32,000 bases of DNA, from the NCBI GenBank assembly GCA_030649345.1, contig JAUSKK010000008.1:1-32000 (forward strand), in the 5' to 3' direction. Source of the stretch: Candidatus Iainarchaeum sp. GTDB taxonomy: Archaea; Iainarchaeota; Iainarchaeia; Iainarchaeales; 0-14-0-20-34-12. Below the pieces are notes generated by a model. It saw only the letters and a list, made by a program, of their open reading frames with translations. It made no database searches and was not told the origin of the DNA. Shown here in pieces: positions 2,816-25,389 of the stretch. Made by a program: the position numbers and the translations under genes. The first letter of the stretch is position 1, and every line of letters begins with the position of its first letter.

Positions 2816-2889
2816 GGGCCCGTAGCTCAGCCTGGCAGAGCATTGGACTTTTAATCCAAGTGTCAAGGGTTCAAATCCCTTCGGGCTCG
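2816..2889 (+). tRNA. tRNA-Lys (anticodon UUU)
   Basis: Manual cloverleaf. Acceptor GGGCCCG/CGGGCTC, D-arm GCTC/GAGC, anticodon stem TTGGA/TCCAA with loop CTTTTAA, T-arm AAGGG-TTCAAAT-CCCTT, discriminator G. No encoded CCA, no intron. Confidence 0.9.
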
Positions 2890-2910
2890 TTTTAATTAAA
2901 AATTTAATGT

Positions 2911-2929
2911 ATCCGATTTTTTTCGGATC
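2911..2929 (+). other. Spacer hairpin ATCCGA-TTTTTTT-TCGGAT abutting the 5' end of tRNA-Phe
   Basis: 6-bp inverted repeat ending one nt before tRNA-Phe position 1. Possibly a processing or termination signal between the two tRNAs. Confidence 0.3.
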
Positions 2930-3003
2930 GGGACTGTAGCTCAGCCTGGAAGAGCAATCGGCTGAAGACCGGTGTGTCGCCAGTTCAAATCTGGCCAGTC
3001 CCA
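2930..3003 (+). tRNA. tRNA-Phe (anticodon GAA)
   Basis: Manual cloverleaf. Acceptor GGGACTG/CAGTCCC, D-arm GCTC/GAGC, anticodon stem ATCGG/CCGGT with loop CTGAAGA, T-arm GCCAG-TTCAAAT-CTGGC, discriminator A. T-runs follow. Confidence 0.9.
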
Positions 3004-3066
3004 CAAAATTTGTTTTTAATAAAATTTAGTTTTTTTTGTTTTTAAAAAATAAAAAATTAGAATAAT

Positions 3067-3411: not shown

Positions 3412-4152
3412 TTAGACATTGGAATATTCGTCTTCAATTTTTTTTACAGTGATTCCGGTATCGCTTATTTGAATCGGGTGAATTTCTTCACTGTGTTTGG
3501 TTGCTCTCATTTTTCGAATTAGTAGATGTCGTGTGCTTTGGGTTCCAATTCCTAAATAATGCAACATAATAACTCCATCTGCTGTGTATTCTTCGACTCC
3601 ATATTTGCTGAATTTGGCTTCTCCTTCTTCTATTTCTGATGTCATAATGGAAGTTACTCCTGCGCGGGTTAACAAGTAGGCTAGTTTGAGTACTGCTTTT
3701 CGTACGTCTTGTTCGTTTTCAAAATTAAATCCTAAAGCTGGAATGGAATCAATAATGACTCGTTTGGCATTGATTCGTTTAATGGTTCGAATGGTTTCTA
3801 GTAATACTTTGTCAATATCAAATCCTGTGGTGGGTAATGAAAATTCTTCTTCGGAAGGCATTCCTATTTTTGCAATAGATCCATCGATTATGCAGAGTTT
3901 GTTTTCTGATTCCAATTTTTTTAAATCCCATCCAAAACGTAAACAATCTTCACGAATCAATGCAGGTCGTTCATCTAAGGTTACATAGACGCCAGGTTCG
4001 TTGAATTTTTGAGCTCCGTTGTATAAGAATTGCATGCTAAAGATTGTTTTTCCTGTTCCAGTAGCTCCACTAACCAGCATGATTCTTCCTTTAGGAAATC
4101 CTCCTTCAATTAAGGAATCAAACCCAGGTATTCCAGTTTTTATTCGTTCCAT
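3412..4152 (-). CDS. KaiC-like single-domain RecA-superfamily ATPase
   Basis: 246 aa. N-terminal RIKTGIPGFDSLIEGGFPKG, Walker A GATGTGKT, then YVTLDE and FGWDL blocks typical of archaeal KaiC/RadB-like ATPases. Confidence 0.75.
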   Translation of the reverse strand: MERIKTGIPGFDSLIEGGFPKGRIMLVSGATGTGKTIFSMQFLYNGAQKFNEPGVYVTLDERPALIREDCLRFGWDLKKLESENKLCIIDGSIAKIGMPSEEEFSLPTTGFDIDKVLLETIRTIKRINAKRVIIDSIPALGFNFENEQDVRKAVLKLAYLLTRAGVTSIMTSEIEEGEAKFSKYGVEEYTADGVIMLHYLGIGTQSTRHLLIRKMRATKHSEEIHPIQISDTGITVKKIEDEYSNV

Positions 4153-4198: not shown

Positions 4199-6076
4199 TT
4201 AAATTCGTTCGACTTTTTTGACTCCATTAACTTGAGTTAATTGTTGAGCTATACTTTCAAGAATCTCTGGATTGGATATTTCGATTGTGAATGTGCATAT
4301 AATTGTGTTTCTTGTTTTGCTTTGGGCTTCGGTTGCTTTAACTTTCACTTTATTCAATGCATTAAGTAAATCTAAAAGAATGCTGGTTCTGTCTTCGGCA
4401 GTGATTTTTATTTTGACTTGCATGTTTTTAGTGCTTGCAGACCATCCTACTTCCAGTATTTTAGTCAACGGCAGTTTTTGAATGTTTTTGCATCCAATTC
4501 TATGAATAATTATTTTGCGTTTGGTTGTTTTGATTCCAATGATTTCTTCTCCTTGTAATGGATTGCAGCATTTTCCGAATTGAATGTTTTTGTCGCTGGT
4601 TGTTTTGGTTATTTTTCTTTGAGTTTTTTTTTCTTTAGCTGGAAGAATTAATCCCAGTTTTTGGCGTATTTTGTCTCTGGCTTTTTTAGATTGTACAAAC
4701 AATAACCATTGCCGTTTAAATTGTGCTTTTTTGGATTTCATTATTTTGACAATATCTCCATTTTCCAGTAAATGATCCAAGGTCACAATTTTGTTGTTGA
4801 CCAAAGCTTTTTCGCAAAAATCTCCTAAATCGGTGTGAATGGCGTATGCAAAATCTACCGGAGTCGATTTTTCAGGTAAAATAATAATTTCGCTGTTAGG
4901 GGTTAATACAAAGATTTCACTTTTTCCAAACCCAATGTTGATGGGGGCAATTAAATTTTCAAGTTTTTGTTGTCTTTGAAATTCAACCAATTGTTTGGCC
5001 CAAGTTAATTGTTTGTCAAATAAGGGTTCTTTTTCAAATTTTTTGTATTGCCAATGTGCAGCCAATCCTTCTTCTGCTGTGCGGTGCATATCCCATGTGC
5101 GAATCTGCACTTCAATAGGCTTGCTTTTGTATTCTATGACTGTGTGAATGGATTTGTATTGGTTGGGTTTTGGGTTCGCGATATAATCATCAAAGTATTT
5201 TTCATTGGCATAGCTTTTGAATTTAGTGTATAGTAATCCCAGTATTTTATAACAATCTTCTACACTATGACAAATGATTCTAGACCCCAATAGATCGTGG
5301 AGTTCGTTTACTTTTTTGTTTTGATTTTTCATTTTTCTATAAATTCCGGAAAAACTTTTAGGTCTGCACACAGTTGTGGCTGGGATATGAGCTGTTTTGA
5401 GTGTTTTTTCTAATTCTTCTTTGAATTCACTTAATAGTTTTTCTCGAAAGCTTCTTTTTTCTTTGAGTTCATTTTTGATTTGTCTATAAATTTCCGGATT
5501 GCTGATTTTAAATGTTAAGTCTTCCAGTTCCCATTCAATATCATACGCTCCTAGTTTGTGGGCAATGGGTACATGAATTTCTTGGACGCGTTTACAAATT
5601 TCCGGCAATTTACTTTTTTCTAAATTAGTATAATTTCTTAAATGATCCAGCATGGCTGCCAATTGAATGAATATTGTGCGAATATCTTTGGCAGTTCCCA
5701 ATACTACCTGGGTTAATAGTTTGTTGGATATTTTTCCGCGATTTTTTCGTTCAATTTGATCAATTTTTGCTACTTGCTGTACTATGTCTGCAACTTCTGT
5801 TCCGATTTTGTTTTTAATTTCTTCAATTTTTTTATCTAAATCTACTGTATTGTCCAATAAATCGTGCAATAAAGCACTGGCAATACTTTCGCTGTCTAGT
5901 TTGAGTTCAGTTAAAATATATCCTGTGTTTAATGCGTGTTGAATTTGTTTTTCTGCGTTGGGTGTGTACTTTTCTAGAATTTGAATAGCTGTGTCTATTT
6001 TTTTTATTTCGGATTTAAGTATGTATTCTTCTGCTTTTTCTTTGATTTGGTTTGCATTAACTTCTTTGTATTGCAT
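4199..6076 (-). CDS. Long RelA/SpoT homolog (HD hydrolase + (p)ppGpp synthetase + TGS + ACT-like C-terminus)
   Basis: 625 aa. HD motif ALLHDLLDNT. Synthetase blocks LLGSRIICHSVEDCY, ANPKPNQYKSIHTVI, VQIRTWDMHRTAEEGLAAHWQYK. TGS-like FVLTPNSEIIILPEKSTPVDFAYAIHTDLG. C-terminal ACT-like segment. Confidence 0.85.
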   Translation of the reverse strand: MQYKEVNANQIKEKAEEYILKSEIKKIDTAIQILEKYTPNAEKQIQHALNTGYILTELKLDSESIASALLHDLLDNTVDLDKKIEEIKNKIGTEVADIVQQVAKIDQIERKNRGKISNKLLTQVVLGTAKDIRTIFIQLAAMLDHLRNYTNLEKSKLPEICKRVQEIHVPIAHKLGAYDIEWELEDLTFKISNPEIYRQIKNELKEKRSFREKLLSEFKEELEKTLKTAHIPATTVCRPKSFSGIYRKMKNQNKKVNELHDLLGSRIICHSVEDCYKILGLLYTKFKSYANEKYFDDYIANPKPNQYKSIHTVIEYKSKPIEVQIRTWDMHRTAEEGLAAHWQYKKFEKEPLFDKQLTWAKQLVEFQRQQKLENLIAPINIGFGKSEIFVLTPNSEIIILPEKSTPVDFAYAIHTDLGDFCEKALVNNKIVTLDHLLENGDIVKIMKSKKAQFKRQWLLFVQSKKARDKIRQKLGLILPAKEKKTQRKITKTTSDKNIQFGKCCNPLQGEEIIGIKTTKRKIIIHRIGCKNIQKLPLTKILEVGWSASTKNMQVKIKITAEDRTSILLDLLNALNKVKVKATEAQSKTRNTIICTFTIEISNPEILESIAQQLTQVNGVKKVERI

Positions 6077-6879: not shown

Positions 6880-8058
6880 ATGGATATTGCTTCAATGAAT
6901 GTTCGTTCTTTGTTAAAAAAATCGTTTCCTCAAGTGGATGCCGATGTTTCTTTAGCAGATGCTATTGCTAAAATGGTTGGTGTTTTTGAACAAGAAGTTT
7001 TGGTTTTTGATAATGGAAAATATTTAGGAAATATTTCTCCTTGGTTTATTTTGAAATCGCGTGCCGATGTCAGTAAAGCTAAAGCACGTAATTCTGCAGT
7101 TGTTTGCCCTAAAGTTTCTTTGGATGATTCAGTGGTGAGTGTAGCTCAACGAATGTTAGATTCCAATGCTAAAGTGCTGCCTGTTTTTTCGGGTTCTTTT
7201 TTTGAAGGTACGGTGGGTGCTTCGGAGATTATTAAACAAATGGCTTCAGTAGAAGAATTAAGTAACATAAAAGTCAGTAGTTTGATTGCGTATCCTTTAA
7301 CTGTTCAAGAAAATGAAAGTGTTGATAAAGTGATTAAAGTTATGCGTTCTAAAAATGTAGAACGTTTGGTTGTTTTAAATAAAGATAAAGTTTCAGGCAT
7401 GTTGTTTTTTGATGATTTGGCAAAAAAGTTTTTGTTGAAAAAAACAAGCGACTCTAAAGCATATGTTTCTGGTTTTGGAAAAGGAACTTTGCGAAAAAAT
7501 CCAAATATTCCGAATGTTTTAAAGTCTCCAATTTCAAATGAATTGTCTGCTGTTTTTCCAACTGCGGATGTTTCAGATTCTTTGAAGAAAGTTTTGGTTA
7601 ATTTTAATCCCAGAACTGGAATTGTGGTTACTTCCAATGGTGTCTTGAAAGGTCTTTTAACAACCCATACTTTGCTGAAAGTTTTGGCTTCTGTGAAAGT
7701 AAGCACTCGAAATATTCAGTTTAGTAATTTTCCTGTTTTGGATGAAATTGATAAAGCCAAAGCAGATAAAACCATTGAAACTGCTTATGACCGAATTGCT
7801 AAATTGGTAGGGCAAGAATTTACTTTGCATATTCATTTTAAGCAGCATCAAAAACAAGGTTCTAGAATTAATCATTCCATTCATGCAAAAGTTTTGTCTG
7901 CAAAACATAATTTTCAAGCAGATAAAGCAGCTTGGAATTTTTTGACTGCTTTGCAAGAAACTTTGAGTGCTTTGGATCAAGAAATGAAAAAGAAACTAAG
8001 ATCAGTTTCTTCAAAACAAAAAGCTTCTGGTTTTCAAAAAAGCCGCCGAAAAAAGTAA
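6880..8058 (+). CDS. Four-CBS-motif protein with C-terminal HPF/RaiA (S30AE)-like domain
   Basis: 392 aa. Four CBS-like repeats in the first ~270 residues. Residues ~275-370 fit a beta-alpha-beta-beta-beta-alpha pattern resembling ribosome hibernation factor HPF/YfiA (NIQFSNF..., TLHIHFK, HSIHAKVL, WNFLTALQETLSALDQEMKKK). The domain call is by eye only. Confidence 0.6.
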   Translation: MDIASMNVRSLLKKSFPQVDADVSLADAIAKMVGVFEQEVLVFDNGKYLGNISPWFILKSRADVSKAKARNSAVVCPKVSLDDSVVSVAQRMLDSNAKVLPVFSGSFFEGTVGASEIIKQMASVEELSNIKVSSLIAYPLTVQENESVDKVIKVMRSKNVERLVVLNKDKVSGMLFFDDLAKKFLLKKTSDSKAYVSGFGKGTLRKNPNIPNVLKSPISNELSAVFPTADVSDSLKKVLVNFNPRTGIVVTSNGVLKGLLTTHTLLKVLASVKVSTRNIQFSNFPVLDEIDKAKADKTIETAYDRIAKLVGQEFTLHIHFKQHQKQGSRINHSIHAKVLSAKHNFQADKAAWNFLTALQETLSALDQEMKKKLRSVSSKQKASGFQKSRRKK

Positions 8059-8242: not shown

Positions 8243-8524
8243 AAAAGTGTGAGCATGCCAAAACATGGGGCAATGGTTGAAGAAAACGTTGTTCTTAAAC
8301 AAAGCTCCATGCTGCGAACTCATAACATTGCTTTTTTGAATTACCGTTGCTTTCTTCCGAATCTGGCGGGTTGGCTTCAATAAGGCAATCCATGAGGACA
8401 GCACTTCGTTGCCGTTGCTTAAGCGTGTTCTACAATTCATTGTTCGCTGTTCTAGCTTCGGTGCACTCTAAAGCAGGTTTAGTGTAACACAGAACTGCTA
8501 CCTCTGCCACCTAGCTCACATAGA
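8243..8524 (-). ncRNA. Signal recognition particle RNA (7S/SRP RNA)
   Basis: The minus strand carries the helix-8 apex CCAGAUUC-GGAA-GAAAGCAACGGUA, compared with the conserved CAGGNCC-GGAA-GGNAGCA(A/G)C. Alu-like 5' domain with two hairpins whose loops GUAGCAG and CCUGC are complementary. Terminal helix UGUGAGC/GCUCACA. TATA box upstream and an oligo-T tract downstream. Ends are approximate. Confidence 0.8.
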
Positions 8525-8540: not shown

Positions 8541-8550
8541 GTTTTTATAG
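8541..8550 (-). promoter_or_regulatory. TATA box (CTATAAAAAC) for the SRP RNA gene, overlapping the Nudix stop codon
   Basis: Lies about 20-25 nt upstream of the first paired nucleotides of the SRP RNA on the minus strand. Confidence 0.5.
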
Positions 8551-9018
8551 TTTGATTTTGTCTGCTTGAATGTCTTTAAATAAATTCTTTAAATTGATGG
8601 TGATATTTTCTGGGATTTCTTCGAATTTAAACCATTTCATTTCACTGAATTTGTTTGGTTCCATTATTTTAGGAATTCCTTGCACGATTTTTGTTTTAAA
8701 AATTGGATTCACCCAATGCTGCAACCAGGGTTCCGGTTGGTCGAACGTGTTGCCTTCGCTGTTGCTTGACAGCACATTTTCTGGTGGAAAATGATCTACT
8801 ACTTTTAGTAATCGTTCGACTTCAATCTTGACTCCAATTTCTTCCATAACTTCTCGTTTGAGTGCTTGTTCTAAGGTTTCTCCGAATTCTACTTCTCCGC
8901 CTGGGAGCCCCCATTGGTTGGGCTCGTTTTTGACTTGGTTTGTTCTGTGTAAAAATAAGATTTCTTTTTTTTCGTTTTGAATTAAGGCTCCTACTCCTAC
9001 TTTGATTACTTTTTTCAT
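8545..9018 (-). CDS. Nudix hydrolase
   Basis: 157 aa. Nudix box GLPGGEVEFGETLEQALKREVMEEIGV. Confidence 0.8.
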   Translation of the reverse strand: MKKVIKVGVGALIQNEKKEILFLHRTNQVKNEPNQWGLPGGEVEFGETLEQALKREVMEEIGVKIEVERLLKVVDHFPPENVLSSNSEGNTFDQPEPWLQHWVNPIFKTKIVQGIPKIMEPNKFSEMKWFKFEEIPENITINLKNLFKDIQADKIKL

Positions 9019-11272: not shown

Positions 11273-11662
11273 ATGCCTCAAAATGATGCAATTATTTTTA
11301 GAAAACGCGGAGAACGAAAAAATTTGCGTTTAATTTTAGATGACGGAGATGACATTTTATCTTGCGTAAAGCAAGCCATGGCTGAGCATAAAATCGAAGA
11401 AGCTAAAATCGAAGCATTAACGGGTGTCTTTAAAGAAGGCGAAATGAATTATTTTGAAGGCAATAAATACAAAAACTTAAAATTGGATGGACGATTTGCT
11501 TTCTTGGCTTCGGGTCATTTTAAATTAAATTTTAATGAATTGTACGGCAGTGTTCATATCAGTGTAAATGAACGCCATCCCATTACTGGTACTTTGGTTC
11601 GTGGAAAAGGAACTGAAGGATTTGAAGTAAAAGTTTCGTTTATTGAATTACACGACAAATAA
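11273..11662 (+). CDS. PPC/DUF296-like protein
   Basis: The in-frame ATG at 11273 has a TATA-like TATTTATTTAAAAA about 25 nt upstream. The 129-aa product has the general PPC-domain pattern (GEMNYF..., SVHISV, ITGTLVRG, EVKVSFIEL). The upstream extension in the ORF track is discounted. Confidence 0.45.
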   Translation: MPQNDAIIFRKRGERKNLRLILDDGDDILSCVKQAMAEHKIEEAKIEALTGVFKEGEMNYFEGNKYKNLKLDGRFAFLASGHFKLNFNELYGSVHISVNERHPITGTLVRGKGTEGFEVKVSFIELHDK

Positions 11663-11672
11663 TTTTTTCTGG

Positions 11673-11762
11673 CTAATCTTCTTTTTCGCAACCGTAACCC
11701 GGTTGGTGTGTTAGATCATCTTCGTTTCACTCGATGATCTTGATTCAGTCTTCTTTTTCGTA
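11673..11762 (-). mobile_element. Stop-codon-adjacent two-hairpin insertion with flanking duplication of the gene end (copy E1)
   Basis: Minus sense: TACGAAAAAGAAGACTGA (gene end, 11745-11762), then a 54-nt block, then TGCGAAAAAGAAGATTAG (11673-11690). The block is ATCA, hairpin AGATCATC/GATGATCT with loop GAGTGAAACGAA, a 7-nt spacer, and hairpin CAACCG-GGTTA-CGGTTG. Confidence 0.5.
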
Positions 11763-11852
11763 TTCGATTTCAAATTTTGGCAAAGGTGTAATGCTGGCGC
11801 GTACTGTGAGTTTGCTTTTTGTTTTTCGTTTTCGTGTTTTTTTGTTTTCCAT
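11745..11852 (-). CDS. Small ORF, 35 aa (MENKKTRKRKTKSKLTVRASITPLPKFEIEYEKED)
   Basis: AAGGAG/GGAG Shine-Dalgarno upstream of the ATG. AT-rich TATA-like tract follows a hairpin plus T-run terminator downstream of radA. Its last codons are the sequence duplicated by element E1. Confidence 0.45.
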   Translation of the reverse strand: MENKKTRKRKTKSKLTVRASITPLPKFEIEYEKED

Positions 11853-11965
11853 TGCTCCAACTCCTTTGCTGACTAAAACTTAGAATTAATTTTTAAAAAA
11901 ATAAAAATAGTGATGCTGAAATAAAATGCAAACATCACGTACTATCAACTACGATTGGAGTTGAA

Positions 11966-12940
11966 TTATTCTTTGTCTTTTGCGTCTTCTACACCGTTTT
12001 CGGTAATGGTGTAAATACATTCTCCGTCCGGTAAGCTGGGACTGTCCACCAGTTTTGCAATTCGTTTGCTTTCTTTGCTTTTACGCAAATACAACCGAGT
12101 CTTAGCCGCATGTCCTACAATGTTTCCTCCAATTGGTGCTGTGGGATCTCCGAATAAAATATCAGGGCGGTCCATAACTTGATTGGTAACCAAGACTGCT
12201 ACATTACTCATTTCAGCTAACTTGGCTAGAACACGTAAGTGTTTGTTGAGTTTTTGCTGCCGATCCGACAAAGTTCCTCGTCCAATAAACTCTGCTCTGA
12301 ATTGGGAAGTTAAGGAGTCAACAATTACAAGTTTAATATTTTTTTCTTTTACTAATTCACTGGCTTTTTCTGCCAGAATACTTTGATGATCTGCATTGTA
12401 TGCACGAGCTACAAAAATGTTTTTTAAAACTTTTTGTGAATCCAATTTTAAGTATTCAGCTACTTGAATAATTCTTTCGGGTCGAAATGAGTTTTCGGAA
12501 TCAATCCATAAACAATTCCCATTCAATCCGCCTTTTTCTACAGGCAATTGTACTGTGACAGCTGTTTCAAAACATAACTGAGTTTTACTGGAACCAAATT
12601 TTCCATATACTTCTGTAATGCTTTGAGATTCTACTCCACCGCCAATTAATTCATCCAATGCTTTGGATCCGGTAGTAATTTTTCCAATAAGTTTTCTTTT
12701 TTCAGCTAATTTATCTGCACTTTCAAAACCCATGTCTAAAGAATCTCGCGCTGCTTTGATTGCTTTGGTTGCAGTAATTTCTCCCAATCCAGCTGCTTCC
12801 ATTAATTCTGCTGGGCTGGCAATTGCAATGCTTTCTAAAGTTTTGTATCCTGCAGTATTTAGTTTTTCTGCTGCCTGAGTTCCAACTCCAGGTAAATCGC
12901 TGACTTCTTTTATGTCTGTTGGTATTTCTGTTTTCGCCAT
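11966..12940 (-). CDS. radA: DNA repair and recombination protein RadA
   Basis: Start taken at MAKTEIP (ATG at 12940), preceded by GGAGGA. HhH N-terminal domain (LPGVGTQAAEKL), Walker A GKFGSSKT, Walker B LVIVDS. Confidence 0.9.
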   Translation of the reverse strand: MAKTEIPTDIKEVSDLPGVGTQAAEKLNTAGYKTLESIAIASPAELMEAAGLGEITATKAIKAARDSLDMGFESADKLAEKRKLIGKITTGSKALDELIGGGVESQSITEVYGKFGSSKTQLCFETAVTVQLPVEKGGLNGNCLWIDSENSFRPERIIQVAEYLKLDSQKVLKNIFVARAYNADHQSILAEKASELVKEKNIKLVIVDSLTSQFRAEFIGRGTLSDRQQKLNKHLRVLAKLAEMSNVAVLVTNQVMDRPDILFGDPTAPIGGNIVGHAAKTRLYLRKSKESKRIAKLVDSPSLPDGECIYTITENGVEDAKDKE

Positions 12941-20207: not shown

Positions 20208-21278
20208 ATGCTTGAAATTGATTGTTCGAAAATAAATGAAGCTGGCGGCCAAATTTTGCGCACTTCTTTGGGTTTAAGTGCTCTTTTACGGAAAGAGGTT
20301 AAAATTACTCATATTCGTTCCGGTCGTCCCAATCCAGGTTTACAGCCACAGCATTTGGCAAGTGTGAACACTATTGCCAGTATGTGCAGTGCTGAATTAG
20401 AGCAAGCGAATCCCAATAGTAGTTCTTTGGTGTTTAAGCCTGGAAAAATTATTCCCAGTCAATTAAGCGTCAATATTGGTACTGCAGGTTCTCTTTCTTT
20501 AATGCTTCAACAATTGCTGCCTGTTTCTTTGGTTGAAAAAATTGAATTGCGTGCTCAAGGCGGAACCCATGTTTCTTTTTCTCCTTCTATGCATTTTATG
20601 CAAGAAGTTTTATTTCCTCAATTGAAACGAATGGGTCTGCATTTGGATTTAGATTTATTGCAGTTTGGTTTTTTTCCAAAAGGTAATGGACGAATTTTTT
20701 TTACCAGTGAAAAACCTAAGTTGCCTTTGAAGGCTTTAAAGCTTTCCAGTTTAGGAAAACTTTCGTACATTAAATGTTATTCAATTTGTTCGGGTTTGCC
20801 TAGAGAAATTGCTTTTGTTCAAGCCAATAGTGCTTTGAAGTCTTTGCAGAAAAAAATTCCCGACAATGATTTTGAGTTTGTAGAACAAGTGAACGCAACT
20901 CCTACACGCAAAGACACAATTGGAACTGCTTTAGATTTGTTTGCATATTTTGATTCTGGTTTAGTTTTAGCTGGCAATGCTTTGGGTGAAAAAGGAAAGC
21001 CTGCAGAACAAGTAGGCCAAGAAGCCGCAGACAATTTGTTAACTCAATTGGAAGCCCAAAAATCCTGCGATCTCCATTTAGCGGATCAAATTATTCCATT
21101 TTGTGCTTTAGCAAAAGGCGAATCAGAATTACGTGTTTCAAAAATTACGCAACATTGTTTAACCAATATTGAGATTGTGAAATTGTTTTTACCAGAAGCT
21201 GAAATGAGTGTTCACGGAAACTTAAATGAGCCTGGAATAATTAAAATTAAAGGAATTGCTTTTACTGGTTTGCCTTAA
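20208..21278 (+). CDS. rtcA: RNA 3'-terminal phosphate cyclase
   Basis: 356 aa. GGGQILRTSLGLSALL N-terminal block and PGLQPQHL, with typical RtcA length. Confidence 0.85.
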   Translation: MLEIDCSKINEAGGQILRTSLGLSALLRKEVKITHIRSGRPNPGLQPQHLASVNTIASMCSAELEQANPNSSSLVFKPGKIIPSQLSVNIGTAGSLSLMLQQLLPVSLVEKIELRAQGGTHVSFSPSMHFMQEVLFPQLKRMGLHLDLDLLQFGFFPKGNGRIFFTSEKPKLPLKALKLSSLGKLSYIKCYSICSGLPREIAFVQANSALKSLQKKIPDNDFEFVEQVNATPTRKDTIGTALDLFAYFDSGLVLAGNALGEKGKPAEQVGQEAADNLLTQLEAQKSCDLHLADQIIPFCALAKGESELRVSKITQHCLTNIEIVKLFLPEAEMSVHGNLNEPGIIKIKGIAFTGLP

Positions 21279-22375
21279 TTTTTGCAAGTAATTAAAATAT
21301 CGTTTCCAGATTTTTGCATTTCTGTTATTTTCAAATTAAATTTTCCTGCAATTTTGGGTTGAATAAAATAAGTGCCTGTCTGAAACACTTTTGGGCTAAC
21401 CACGATCATTATTTGATCTGCAATTTTTGCTTTCAATAAACTGGTATTCAAGGTTTGCCCGCCTTCCACTAAAATACTTCCTATGTTTTGTTTTCCGAGT
21501 TTTTTGAATACTTGTTTTAAGTTAAATTTTCCAGACTGGATAGGCAATTCCAGGAACTGAATTTTTTCTTTGAGTCTTTTTTCCAGTTTTCTTTTTTTAA
21601 TTTTATTTATTGAATCCAATTTGTTTCCAGTTACAATAATGATTTTTCCTTTTTGGTTTAATACTTTTGCAGTCACAGGAATTTCCAAAAATGGGTCTAA
21701 AATAATGCGTACTGGATTTCTTCCATTTTTGATTCTACAAGTCAGTCTTGGATTATCCTGGATAACTGTTTTGACTCCAACCAAAATTCCGTCTAAAGTA
21801 TTCCGCAATTGATGAACAAATCTTTGTGTTTTTTTCCCATTAATCCAGTGTTCTTTTTGTTCTTTGCTCCAAATCAGTCCATTGGCTGTCATTCCAATTT
21901 TTTGCACAATGTACGGTATTCTTGTTTGAATCCATTTCAAATAAGCTTGGTTTATTTCTATGCATTCTTTTTCTAAAATATTTGTTTGAACTTGAATTCC
22001 AGCTTTTTTAAGCGCTTGAATTCCTTTTCCTTTAACTTTGGGATTCAGGTCTTTCATTCCAATAACTACTTTCCGAATTCCAGAATTTACAATGGCCGGA
22101 ACACTGGGAGGCGTTTTTTTTTCTTTTCCAGAATGAAAACAAGGTTACAAAGAAACATACAGTGTACTTCCTTTTGCTTTGTTTCCAGCTATTTTCAAAG
22201 CATTAATTTCTGCATGATTTTCTCCAAACTTTTCATGAAAACCTTTTCCTACAATTTTCCCATTGTTGACAATTAAACAGCCGACCAATGGATTGGTTTG
22301 TGTTCTGCCTAAACCTTTCAGAGCTAAATTAATAGCTAATTTCATAATTTTTTCGTTTTGGTTCAAGAATGCCAT
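21275..22375 (-). pseudogene. ribD: Fused riboflavin RibD (deaminase + reductase) interrupted by one in-frame TAA
   Basis: ORFs 22145-22393 (deaminase N-part, NHAE motif) and 21275-22057 (reductase) are in the same frame. The only interruption is a TAA at 22145-22147, where RibD proteins have the Glu of L-E-P-C. Reading through gives ...TLYVSL*PCFHSGKEKKTPPSVPAIVNSGIRKVVIGMKDLNP... The second zinc Cys (TPPC) is Ser here. Confidence 0.65.
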
Positions 22376-23172: not shown

Positions 23173-23499
23173 ATGGATGAAAATTTAGATTCATTAAGGC
23201 AGCAGCGCATGCAGCATTTGAAAAAAAATGCAGAAGACAAAAAAAGCCAGCAAGAGCAAGCAATGCAAGCTCAAATGCAAGTGAATGCTTTAATGATTCA
23301 GTATCTAGAGCCGGCAGCCAAAGAACGGTTGAACAATGTAAAATTAATTAATTCAGAATTGTACGGAAAAGTTGTTCAAACTGTTTTGTATTTGGTGAAA
23401 AGCCAAAAATTGAATCGAAAAATAACGGATATTGAATTAAAAAAATTATTAACTTTGGCCACAGGTCAAAAACGAGAAATTAAAATTGTAAGAAAATAA
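23173..23499 (+). CDS. PDCD5/TFAR19-family dsDNA-binding protein
   Basis: 108 aa. Pattern LEPAAKERLNNVKLIN...VVQTVLYLVKSQKL...ITDIELKKLL typical of the family, and the expected position in the conserved archaeal cluster. Confidence 0.75.
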   Translation: MDENLDSLRQQRMQHLKKNAEDKKSQQEQAMQAQMQVNALMIQYLEPAAKERLNNVKLINSELYGKVVQTVLYLVKSQKLNRKITDIELKKLLTLATGQKREIKIVRK

Positions 23500-23580
23500 A
23501 TCAGTAGTGCTGAATGAAATGAAGCACTACGTTCGACCAACCGGAACCCCGGTTGAGAAGTTAAAATTGTAAGAAAATAA
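23474..23580 (+). mobile_element. Stop-codon-adjacent two-hairpin insertion with flanking duplication of the gene end (copy E2)
   Basis: Gene end GAGAAATTAAAATTGTAAGAAAATAA (23474-23499), a 55-nt block (23500-23554), then GAGAAGTTAAAATTGTAAGAAAATAA (23555-23580; 25/26 identical). The block is ATCA, hairpin GTAGTGCT/AGCACTAC with loop GAATGAAATGA, a 7-nt spacer, and hairpin CAACCGG-AACC-CCGGTTG. Confidence 0.55.
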
Positions 23581-23600
23581 AAAAATATTGAGGAATCATA

Positions 23601-23888
23601 ATGGCAAGACATAAAACACAAGAATTCAAACAATTTGCAATTGCAAAACGCAGAAGTGTCGGAAGTACTTTAAGTGCTGCTCCAGTTTGGACTTTTCAGA
23701 AAGCAAATCGCAGATTGTTTTCAAAGACCAGCAAGCGTACTTGGAAACAAATAGGTATTGGGAAGTTATTTGACGAACAACAACATACTAAAGAAACCCA
23801 AGCCATCAAGCATATGAAGCGTTCTTTTTTAGTCAAAAAAAGAGCACGATTAAATAAGAAAATAAAATCAAAAAAGAAAACAAATTAA
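23601..23888 (+). CDS. rpl39e: 50S ribosomal protein L39e with ~40-aa basic C-terminal extension
   Basis: The N-terminal ~55 aa (MARHKTQEFKQFAIAKRR...APVWTFQKANRR...KRTWK) match the L39e pattern. GAGG Shine-Dalgarno upstream. Confidence 0.75.
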   Translation: MARHKTQEFKQFAIAKRRSVGSTLSAAPVWTFQKANRRLFSKTSKRTWKQIGIGKLFDEQQHTKETQAIKHMKRSFLVKKRARLNKKIKSKKKTN

Positions 23889-23906
23889 AATATGGGATGA
23901 CTATTT

Positions 23907-24347
23907 ATGGTTGAAATTCGAGAATTTACAGTGGATTTAAAGAAAAGATACAAACAACCCAAGCCTGGCAGAGCCAATAAAAGTATCAATGCCATTCGCT
24001 TAAAGGTAAGCAAAGCTTTGCATGTTCCTTTAGATACTGTGAAATTATCCAATACTGTAAACGAAGCTATTTGGGAACACGGGCGAACCAAGCCTCCGCA
24101 TAGAATTAAATTAACTTTAAAACAAGACACCGATCGAGTGGACGTATTTTTATTCAGTGAATTTGAAGAAGTTAAAAAATTAGTTTCTGAAGAAAAAAAG
24201 AAAAAAGAATCCAAGAAAACTGAACCTAAAAAAGAAAAAACAGAAAAAGTTGAACCTGAAACAGAAGCAGGTGTTGCTGAAGCAGTAAAACAAAAACAGA
24301 AAAAAGAAATTGAAGAAGCTGCTCAAAGCATGGATCATAAACATTAA
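23907..24347 (+). CDS. rpl31e: 50S ribosomal protein L31e with Lys/Glu-rich C-terminal extension
   Basis: The first ~85 aa carry L31e blocks (REFTVDLKK, RANKSINAIR, NEAIWEHGRTKPPHRIKL). Confidence 0.8.
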   Translation: MVEIREFTVDLKKRYKQPKPGRANKSINAIRLKVSKALHVPLDTVKLSNTVNEAIWEHGRTKPPHRIKLTLKQDTDRVDVFLFSEFEEVKKLVSEEKKKKESKKTEPKKEKTEKVEPETEAGVAEAVKQKQKKEIEEAAQSMDHKH

Positions 24348-24366
24348 TGAATTCTTTTGAATTCAT
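24347..24366 (+). other. Intercistronic hairpin ATGAATTC-TTTT-GAATTCAT after L31e
   Basis: 8-bp perfect inverted repeat beginning at the last base of the TAA stop codon. Confidence 0.35.
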
Positions 24367-24380
24367 AATTAGGTAATCCA

Positions 24381-25040
24381 ATGAAATTTACTAAACAATA
24401 TTTGAATTCCAGCCCCTACATTGGCGTATTTGCAGTTACCAGTGAAACGATTTCTTTATTTCCTGCTTTTATTACAAAAAAACAAAAACTTTATTTTCAA
24501 GACATTTTGGGAACAGAAATTATTCAAGGAACTTTAGCAGGATCGCATTTATTGGGTGTGTTTGCTGTTGGATCGCAAAACAAGTTTTTAGTTTCCAATC
24601 TAATTTCAGACAAAGAATTGGATTTTTATAAAAATCAAGGATTGAAATTAGAAGTCTTAAGTGATAATTTGGCAGTTGGAAATTTAATTGCTTTAAATGA
24701 TTTTGGAGCAGTTTGTAGTCCTATTTTTTCCAAAGAAGACATCGCAAAGATTAAATCTTTTTTGGGCACAGAAGTTGTTACTTCTTTGGTTGGAAATCAT
24801 GATCTAACCGGGGCCAGTTGCAAGGCAACCAATGTTGGATTTATTGTAAGTCCTATGGTTACAGAACAAGAATTTAGTGTTTTGCAGAAAACATTAAAGG
24901 TAGACGGAATGCGAACCACAGCCAATTACGGTGATAGATATGTAGGCAATGGATTAATTGCCAATTCAAAAGGCGCAGTGATTGGTGTTCCAACCACAAC
25001 CCATGAAATGATTCGCATAGATGAAGCATTCAGAAAATAG
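24381..25040 (+). CDS. eif6: Translation initiation factor 6 (aIF6)
   Basis: 219 aa. Pentein-repeat pattern (IGVFAVTSE, LLGVFAVGSQN, VGNLIALND, ATNVGFIVSP, VGNGLIANSKG) and the conserved cluster position. Confidence 0.85.
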   Translation: MKFTKQYLNSSPYIGVFAVTSETISLFPAFITKKQKLYFQDILGTEIIQGTLAGSHLLGVFAVGSQNKFLVSNLISDKELDFYKNQGLKLEVLSDNLAVGNLIALNDFGAVCSPIFSKEDIAKIKSFLGTEVVTSLVGNHDLTGASCKATNVGFIVSPMVTEQEFSVLQKTLKVDGMRTTANYGDRYVGNGLIANSKGAVIGVPTTTHEMIRIDEAFRK

Positions 25041-25156
25041 GAATGAAATTTGAAGAGATGTACCACAAAATTTTAAATTTTGCGTATATACAAAATCGAT
25101 GATTTTGTAGTACATCGAAACCGTAGGTTTGGATAGACGAGGCATTCAGAAAATAA
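25017..25156 (+). mobile_element. Stop-codon-adjacent structured insertion with flanking duplication of the gene end (copy E3, larger and diverged)
   Basis: Gene end ATAGATGAAGCATTCAGAAAATAG (25017-25040), a 92-nt block, then ATAGACGAGGCATTCAGAAAATAA (25133-25156). The block starts GAATGAAATTTGAAG, has a 15-position hairpin 25057-25071/25102-25116 with a nested hairpin, then AAACC-GTA-GGTTT (25118-25130). Confidence 0.5.
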
Positions 25157-25191
25157 GAATAATTGAAACTAATATTTGAAAGGTGAAATGT

Positions 25192-25389
25192 ATGATGAAA
25201 AAATTTGAAATGAAAGGATCTTATAAAGAAAAAAAATCTTGGAAGAAATTTACTAGAACTGTAGAAGCTGTAAGTGAAAAACGAGCCCGAGAATTATTGC
25301 AAAGCTTATTAGGTTCAGAACACCAAGTAGTCAAGCATCATCTTAAAATTGATTCATTGCAAGAAGCTCAAGAAAAAACCGGTGAATAA
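25192..25389 (+). CDS. rplX: 50S ribosomal protein LX (L18Ae/eL20 family)
   Basis: ATG at 25192, 5 nt after AGGTGA. The ~65-aa product has the LX pattern (FEMKGSY...FTRTVEAVSEKRARELLQSLLGSEH) and the expected cluster position. Confidence 0.7.
   Translation: MMKKFEMKGSYKEKKSWKKFTRTVEAVSEKRARELLQSLLGSEHQVVKHHLKIDSLQEAQEKTGE

Follow-up and report, generated by a model that had tools for sequence, protein, structure and literature searches.

The hairpin block E1, which lies directly behind the stop codon of a 35-residue ORF in a 32,000-nt stretch of archaeal DNA (the whole of the stretch analysed, called here the window), is most probably one copy of a non-coding, non-autonomous and repeatedly inserted family of double-hairpin elements of about 54-64 nt in Diapherotrites, a reading to which we assign a probability of roughly 0.78. 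It is carried by features that can be observed directly in the sequences, namely a recurrent unit, covariation in its stems, target duplications, filled and empty sites and one in-frame insertion within a protein gene. The host of the repeat is a Diapherotrites (DPANN) archaeon, and the window (G+C about 34%, archaeal and low in G+C) encodes RadA, the archaeal SRP RNA and a cluster of S19e, PDCD5-like, L39e, L31e and eIF6 genes.

Organisation of the E1 locus

On the minus strand, the TGA stop codon of the 35-residue ORF is followed in order by the leader ATCA, hairpin 1 (arm-loop-arm, AGATCATC-GAGTGAAACGAA-GATGATCT), the spacer AACACAC and hairpin 2, after which comes (TG)CGAAAAAGAAGATTAG. The features of the locus are the following:

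11689-11744, minus strand: E1 double-hairpin element (sequence, folding, strict scan, and covariance model R1 with 62.8 bits)
11741-11744, minus strand: leader ATCA
11713-11740, minus strand: hairpin 1, with arms at 11733-11740 and 11713-11720 and the loop at 11721-11732
11706-11712, minus strand: spacer AACACAC
11689-11705, minus strand: hairpin 2, CAACCG-GGTTA-CGGTTG
11745-11762, minus strand: upstream copy of the target duplication, TACGAAAAAGAAGACTGA, formed by the last five codons and the stop codon of the 35-residue ORF
11673-11690, minus strand: downstream copy of the target duplication, TGCGAAAAAGAAGATTAG, whose first two bases overlap the end of hairpin 2
11745-11852, minus strand: the 35-residue ORF, with an AGGAG-like ribosome-binding site and AT-rich DNA upstream, ending TAC GAA AAA GAA GAC TGA

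The block folds as two hairpins (-18.4 kcal/mol, z -3.1). The two copies of the flanking repeat are identical at 14 of 18 bases, and an equally good match across a 54-nt gap is found (empirically) at 8 of 31,910 positions of the window.

A counterpart of the small ORF in related genomes, for which the earlier note had proposed a check, did not turn up: the ORF belongs to no Pfam family, has no homologue among 1.84 billion representative proteins, and gave no tblastn or blastn match in the relatives' loci. It is unsupported as a gene and its status is uncertain; three bona fide genes also have duplicated tails, and this analogy makes a slight case that the ORF may be a real one.

Further copies of the element in the window

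Besides E1, the window contains three further copies of the same family and one block of a different kind that is flanked in the same way:

23500-23555, plus strand: E2, a double-hairpin element behind the stop codon of the PDCD5-like gene (folding, strict scan, repeat search)
23474-23499/23500 and 23555-23580/23581, plus strand: target duplication of E2, 26-27 nt with one mismatch (25/26) and a spacing of 81
8722-8779, minus strand: E3, an in-frame copy within the Nudix gene at 8545-9018, in sense orientation and with no flanking repeat
11906-11963, plus strand: E4, a degenerate copy (R1 31.3 bits, E about 1e-5) with no flanking repeat
25012-25160, plus strand: E5, a duplication of the eIF6 tail around a different hairpin block (ORF-end tail scan, repeat search)

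E2 has the module order of E1 and also folds as two hairpins (-23.3 kcal/mol, z -5.2); the layout that the earlier note described as common to both (ATCA, the hairpins and a 7-nt spacer) is indeed present in the sequence. Hairpin 2 of E2, together with the spacer, recurs at 8722-8753 on the minus strand (91% over 32 nt), and this recurrence revealed E3. The two hairpins of E3 cover 54 nt (8722-8775), the net insertion amounts to 17 codons, and the hairpin-1 stem is a third one, again different from those of E1 and E2.

In the Nudix protein, the corresponding 17-residue insert occurs only in the window sequence and in a 72%-identical protein from another sample, being missing from the 11 other homologues and from PDB 4dyw in an alignment of 12 homologues with that structure. 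The AlphaFold2 model has a confident Nudix fold (mean pLDDT 87.5), in which the insert is predicted as a low-confidence loop (pLDDT <50 for residues 84-95).

The orthologue of E3 in the related locus L008 (444-501) has GTGCTATC-CAGCAACAGTGAA-GATAGCAC as hairpin 1, the spacer GAGCCAC and CATCCCG-CTCT-CGGGATG as hairpin 2; both hairpins are perfect, and both are altered relative to E3 by compensatory substitutions. Between the two loci identity is 81% in the gene flanks, where the changes show the usual codon-position bias, and 70% in the 54-nt element, where they do not, both stems staying paired through three double and two repairing changes. The 3' half of E3 is identical to E2 at 29 of 33 positions, so that the upkeep of the stems at the E3 locus could be conversion and not selection. 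The archaeal SRP RNA (8247-8521, minus strand) lies directly downstream of the Nudix gene, and this synteny is kept in L008.

E4 is scored by the covariance model R1, which was built from E1, E2, E3 and the L008 copy. It starts 2 nt after the stop codon of radA, is antisense to that gene and is inverted with respect to E1. The orphan 35-residue ORF is bracketed by E1 and E4, with their leader ends pointing inward, in a segment of 275 nt (11689-11963).

E5 duplicates the last 9-10 codons of eIF6 together with the stop codon. Its repeat copies (25012-25044 and 25128-25160) are identical at 28 of 33 positions and end in the stops TAG and TAA, respectively; the 83-nt block between them (25045-25127) consists of a long AT-rich hairpin and then a small one, AAACC-GTA-GGTTT, that adjoins the second copy. 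E5 bears the same insertion signature as the E family and shares its plan, but the block differs in sequence and belongs to another repeat family. The E family thus has four copies in the 32 kb (E1, E2, E3 and E4), and the window holds at least five hairpin-block insertions.

Conserved structure and covariation

In E1 and E2 the element consists of a leader, a hairpin 1 with 8 bp, a 7-nt spacer and a hairpin 2 with 6-7 bp. Across the family the unit measures about 54-64 nt, the spacer 7-8 nt, and the leader is short, A-rich and often provided with a stop triplet (the leaders with stop-like triplets being TGAATCA, TAAATCA, TAGTGAA and TAGTAAA). The 8-bp stem of hairpin 1 is free in sequence, and its cap is made of a tandem 5'-GA/GA(A)-3', a 2-bp helix and, usually, a GAA triloop; hairpin 2 is G+C-rich (6-7 bp) and abuts the downstream flank.

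The earlier note had pointed out that the hairpin-1 stems of E1 and E2 are wholly different around a conserved loop, which is what the sequences contain, and a manual tabulation of nine copies yields nine different stems, each complementary to its own partner. Pairing between cognate arms extends to 7-8 of 8 positions, whereas non-cognate arms average 5.25. The inner 2-bp helix of the cap covaries as well (G-C/A-T/G.T; T-A/C-G) under a constant GA...GA(A): at the sequence level, 5'-GA and GA(A)-3' flank the apical 2-bp helix in six of the nine copies, and the 3' GA is found in all nine. Tandem G.A pairs with GAA triloops form stable structures in RNA and in single-stranded DNA alike. The supposed constancy of hairpin 2 holds for E1 and E2, where it is similar, but not for the relatives, where it covaries (for example, CATCCCG/CGGGATG in L008).

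The covariation was counted on a MAFFT alignment of four copies (E1, E2, E3 and the L008 orthologue of E3), in which 98.3% of the cells pair and 10 of 15 pairs change on both sides, values reached by 0 of 500 shuffles; in slid-partner controls of this alignment the pairing is only 27-52%. When 7-8 diverse copies were aligned with MAFFT, the arms came out of register; these alignments were excluded from the pair counts, and the manual tabulation was used instead. These counts, and the nine stems, bear out the proposal that the covarying stems reflect a structure under constraint, and support the conclusion that structure, rather than sequence, is conserved in the element. At a single locus, what looks like selection may be due in part to ectopic conversion between copies.

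A strict scan (8 Watson-Crick bp, a 9-15-nt loop, a 5-9-nt spacer and 6 bp) of both strands of the 32 kb matched E1 and E2 only, against an average of 0.15 in 20 Markov shuffles. A permissive hairpin scan, with G.U pairs and mismatches allowed, was uninformative, and the strict one was used instead. The hairpin-1 loop motif combined with CAACCGG has one match in the window, against 0 expected. Rfam has nothing at E1 or E2, at either gathering or permissive thresholds (E up to 10). In collections of genome and metagenome contigs, a single degenerate pattern (hairpin 2 plus the hairpin-1 loop), which was too specific to the window's own subfamily, gave 3 + 3 matches, all of them chance occurrences in bacterial coding DNA without a hairpin-1 stem.

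Target duplications, filled sites and an empty site

About a dozen copies were examined in all. Direct repeats lie exactly at the block boundaries of E1 (14/18), E2 (25/26) and E5 (28/33), and of the blocks in the related loci L009 (49/49 and 35/37) and L012 (48/51); overall, the duplications measure 0 (E3, E4), about 4, 18, 26, 33, 37, 49 and 51 nt. When each ORF end in about 110 kb (the window and its relatives) was scanned for a second copy of its tail within 260 nt, the only outliers were E2 (score 24), the eIF6 gene of the window (19) and the radA genes of L009 (49) and L012 (42), while the highest score among the reverse-complement controls was 11 in the first scan and 14 in the second. 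At every outlier there is a hairpin block between the tail copies. The claim that the block is the recurrent unit and the flanks are specific to each locus is upheld by the duplicated tails of the PDCD5-like gene, eIF6 and radA, and by the uninterrupted radA site of the related locus L016.

The duplications have a definite relation to the gene end. In the six long cases, without exception, the stop codon is inside the duplication, whose downstream end falls 0-9 nt past it; the end coincides exactly with the stop codon in three of the six, and in E2 it is 1 nt farther on. Sense orientation is common to all six (and to 11 of about 12 copies overall), and the duplication-flanked copies are all situated between a stop codon and the native T-rich terminator.

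The radA loci of related Diapherotrites genomes provide both filled and empty sites. In L009 the radA tail (5032-5302) is present in three copies with two different blocks between them, one of which belongs to the E family; block 2 has an extra AAAAAATAA upstream, which looks like a transduced donor flank. In L012 two tail copies surround two tandem units of the other (non-E) block type. L016 is an empty site (3836-3960): directly behind its radA stop codon comes the T-rich terminator which, in the two filled genomes, stands after the final tail copy. The RadA of L016 shares 87.9% identity with that of each filled genome. The region upstream of radA holds about five units in a tandem array in L012 (9596-9880), a single unit in L009 (3951-4007) and no unit in L016.

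The tail copies of L009 and L012 are more alike within each genome than between the two, and the duplication boundaries are nearly equal, so that gene conversion or site-specific re-insertion is needed to account for them. Together with the near-identity between the 3' half of E3 and E2, these concerted tails indicate ectopic conversion or repeated re-insertion. Differences between tail copies fall at third codon positions in 8 of 13 cases, against about 47% expected (an expectation of our own estimation), and they fit copies that were once identical, with the upstream functional copy taking synonymous and stop-to-stop changes and the downstream copy decaying. In the closest relative of L009 (RadA P0049, on an NCBI contig of 7,546 nt) the radA gene is annotated as partial, ending at the end of its contig within the tail that is duplicated in L009; repeats of this element probably break assemblies.

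Insertion mechanism and alternative explanations

No well-characterised transposase produces target duplications like these, which range from 0 to 51 nt. Being long and variable, and without terminal inverted repeats, they argue against a classical DDE transposase; they fit two independent nicks, copy-choice during replication or a reverse-transcription route. Among 41 plausible ORFs of the window, none matched the Pfam families of transposases, integrases, reverse transcriptases or Cas1, and there is no Y1 transposase (RAYT) in the window and no reverse transcriptase in the window or in the relatives' loci (Pfam results and gene tables), so that the mobilising activity is hypothetical.

As to the enzyme, the intermediate (DNA or RNA) and the cause of the sense orientation, we infer a scheme of the following kind. 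A trans-acting enzyme encoded elsewhere would recognise the folded single strand, which would enter the target either through a pair of strand breaks or by a template switch, the two points lying between 0 and about 50 nt from each other, and fill-in would then leave the target duplicated. In a gene-dense genome only harmless insertions would survive. In some of the survivors, the duplicated stretch would hold the gene end with its stop codon, the gene remaining complete and its old tail becoming a dead copy behind the element; others would be in-frame, stop-free insertions in a surface loop. With the tail and stop codon duplicated, and the element in sense orientation at the gene end, the gene stays intact. 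The hairpins would be needed either for propagation or for a function of the sense strand. Selection alone falls short of the stop-codon boundary, the sense bias and the stop-like triplets of the leader, which it leaves unexplained; likewise, a random staggered cut followed by selection does not account for the stop-codon endpoints or for the sense orientation of 11 of about 12 copies.

A different reading, which we hold to be possible if rather doubtful, is that the hairpin pair is a functional mRNA module in the 3'-UTR, stabilising transcripts or binding a protein through its tandem G.A pairs, with selection acting at the level of the host and mobility being secondary. The sense orientation of 11 of about 12 copies relative to their flanking genes is consistent with such a role, as are the position of the duplication-flanked copies between stop codon and T-rich terminator (hence co-transcribed), the retention of the cap (GA/GA(A), 2 bp and GAA) while the stems vary, and the keeping of both stems across two lineages by the in-gene copy (E3 and L008). 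A host function is difficult to reconcile, however, with host genes that are mutually unrelated, with the equally related L016, which has no element at radA and no replacement for it, and with a copy in coding sequence and tandem arrays, both of which typify selfish repeats. Moreover, Rfam yields no match even at E up to 10, the 3-nt bulge that defines a K-turn is missing, and neither strand is favoured by the wobble and mismatch positions (four G.U against three A.C, as read from the sequences). Chance palindromes in AT-rich intergenic DNA, for which nothing speaks except the small sample, are refuted by the loop-motif match, the strict scan, the covariation, the R1 scores and the rarity of the flank match, as well as by the orthologous copy in L008 and the copies in the other relatives.

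The remaining alternatives concern how the tails came to be duplicated. Long variable target duplications without terminal inverted repeats are a hallmark of target-primed reverse transcription, and an RNA intermediate could be SINE-like, or involve template switching by a reverse transcriptase onto mRNA 3' regions followed by recombination, with hairpin 2 as the 3'-end recognition structure. The duplications seen here are of that sort and extend upstream from a point at or just after the stop codon, the copies are sense and co-transcribed, and the extra AAAAAATAA of L009 block 2 resembles a transduced donor flank; but the window and the relatives' loci contain no reverse transcriptase, the elements have no A-rich or other simple 3' tail, E4 is antisense, and we know of no archaeal precedent, so that we consider this route unlikely. 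Similarly improbable is an archaeal retroposon-like or copy-choice repeat, in which a small structured RNA, or its single-stranded DNA copy, would be joined to gene 3' ends by template switching, with one junction at the stop codon and the other 15-50 nt upstream. Copy-choice of this type would yield both variable gene-tail duplications and strict sense orientation; to our knowledge, it is an insertion mode undescribed for any prokaryotic repeat. Integrative elements aimed at gene 3' ends bring a replacement tail with them, and the duplicated tails could in principle be att-like junctions left by site-specific integration of larger elements, with the hairpin blocks as deletion remnants, as the nearly shared radA duplication boundary of L009 and L012 might suggest. 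This is very unlikely, given that one block family sits between different duplicated sequences (E1, E2 and L009 block 2) and also occurs without any duplication (E3 and the arrays), that the blocks are just 54-83 nt long with a conserved two-hairpin plan, and that the window has no integrase gene. Hardly credible at all is a recoding or diversification device, be it translational bypassing between matched repeats or a template and variable repeat pair of the DGR type: a hairpin right after a stop codon and between matching codons does formally recall T4 gene 60 and mitochondrial byp, and a gene-end repeat with a hairpin behind it recalls DGR targets, but the first stop yields a complete protein (the 64%-identical homologue P0002 shares the REIKIVRK C-terminus), the second repeat copy meets a stop immediately, the repeat spacing is out of frame in four of six cases (116, 113, 104 and 196 nt), and the mismatches (A/G, C/T, G/A, C/G and others) have no adenine bias, with no reverse transcriptase nearby. 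We retain the mobile double-hairpin family as the preferred explanation of E1.

Comparison with known repeat families

The closest bacterial parallels are found among small palindromic repeats. Like REP/BIME sequences (REPINs), the elements are short hairpin repeats that lie mostly just downstream of genes, are co-transcribed, occur singly or in clusters, are non-coding and non-autonomous, and keep the hairpin more than the sequence; four copies in 32 kb and the tandem array of L012 agree with the definition of a REP/REPIN as a short extragenic palindrome present in many copies or clusters. They differ in being archaeal, in having two unlike hairpins in fixed order and one in-frame genic copy, and in their flanks, since REPs make no target duplication, whereas long direct repeats flank E1, E2 and L009 block 2. 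A REP-type GTAG is located just before hairpin 1, or overlaps it, in E2 and two units of L012, and is not found in E1, E3 or E4.

Rickettsia palindromic elements (RPEs) are likewise inserted in frame in conserved protein genes, where the extra peptide is tolerated and an RNA-type structure is kept, and the Nudix insert, with its 17 residues in a low-pLDDT loop missing from 11 homologues, corresponds to this description. RPEs are 105-146 bp long, with a single long hairpin and terminal inverted repeats (PMC2229807), whereas the Diapherotrites unit has 54-58 nt and two separate hairpins; moreover, just one of the copies seen is coding, most of them following a stop codon, with the gene tail duplicated. 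Gene-fused repeats of archaea have been described by Suyama et al. 2005 (as cited in PMC2229807), and the in-frame insertion of E3 resembles them. The Yersinia repeat YPAL/RU-2 is a palindromic mobile repeat of 168 bp, without terminal inverted repeats and with target duplications of 3-26 bp, which inserts at or beside dyad symmetries (PMC2229807). The Diapherotrites element shares with it a small palindromic form without terminal inverted repeats and a target duplication of variable length; YPAL is enterobacterial, and the duplications found here reach 49-51 nt and systematically include the stop codon of the gene.

Double-hairpin elements and G+C clusters of fungal mitochondria, reportedly the subject of work by Paquin, Laforest and Lang in 2000, are mobile units of two adjoining stem-loops whose structure is kept by compensatory changes, and the Diapherotrites element may resemble them. 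Such fungal mitochondrial elements invade compact genomes, mostly between genes and occasionally within them. They differ in belonging to an organelle and in being rich in G+C amid A+T-rich DNA, and we know of no gene-tail duplication signature for them. With SINE-type retroposons the Diapherotrites element has in common the lack of terminal inverted repeats, the long variable duplications and a structured 3' end by the downstream duplication; it differs in having no A-tail, no partner reverse transcriptase in the loci examined and a prokaryotic host.

Several other classes were considered and rejected. The ends of the element (ATCA... and ...CGGTTG) are not inverted copies of each other, its inverted repeats being the two internal stems only, and the duplication length is neither short nor fixed (0-51 nt), unlike in a MITE. 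An L7Ae-binding kink-turn or K-loop has tandem G.A beside a helix, as is the case here, but the 5'-strand bulge is absent, the 3' strand has 0-1 A, the apical nucleotides form the covarying 2-bp helix, and there is no Rfam match. For an integron attC site, the 3' ends (GTTGAGA and GTTGCGA, compared with the GTTRRRY core), the two separate perfect hairpins and the lack of an integrase are unsuitable. No terminator-like site occurs in 11500-12100 or 23350-25250, which excludes an intrinsic terminator; the junctions are not complementary, as a BHB intron would demand; and a CRISPR-like unit was also dismissed.

No description of such double-hairpin elements in Diapherotrites was found in the literature. 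The repeat joins the small palindromic "selfish" repeats of bacteria as an archaeal variant with an unusual signature, the duplication of gene tails. DPANN genomes are very small, gene-dense and usually called streamlined, and at least five hairpin-block insertions in 32 kb mean that small selfish repeats actively reshape such a genome, adding peptide loops to enzymes and leaving dead copies of gene tails behind. The stop-regenerating duplication of 0-51 nt and the near-uniform sense orientation offer a handle for finding the enzyme or the intermediate that moves the element, and both the tail duplications and the in-frame insert are liable to mislead gene callers and insertion-based phylogenies.

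Other observations in the window and in related loci

A repeat candidate at 7580-7687 was discarded, being the internal repeat of a CBS-domain gene on the opposite strand. The genes for tRNA-Lys(UUU) and tRNA-Phe(GAA) are present at 2816-3004 (plus strand). Long RSH proteins are typical of bacteria, and this archaeal window encodes one, a full-length RelA/SpoT homologue (4199-6076, minus strand) with HD, RelA_SpoT, TGS and ACT domains. A RibD-like gene (21275-22375, minus strand) is split by an in-frame TAA at 22145-22147, which takes the place of the catalytic Glu in the deaminase motif (...YVSL*PCFHSG...); Ser stands in place of the second zinc-ligand Cys, and the reductase domain carries on in the same frame. 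Possible causes of the split are decay of the deaminase domain, a sequencing error and stop-codon recoding.

In the related locus L015 (3448-3517), where the fumarase alpha and beta genes adjoin, two exact copies of an 18-nt repeat, AATTAATTAAATTGAAAA, are separated by only 34 nt; they encode the C-terminus of one protein and the N-terminus of its neighbour. With no hairpin there, it looks like a scar of gene fission and not like a double-hairpin element.
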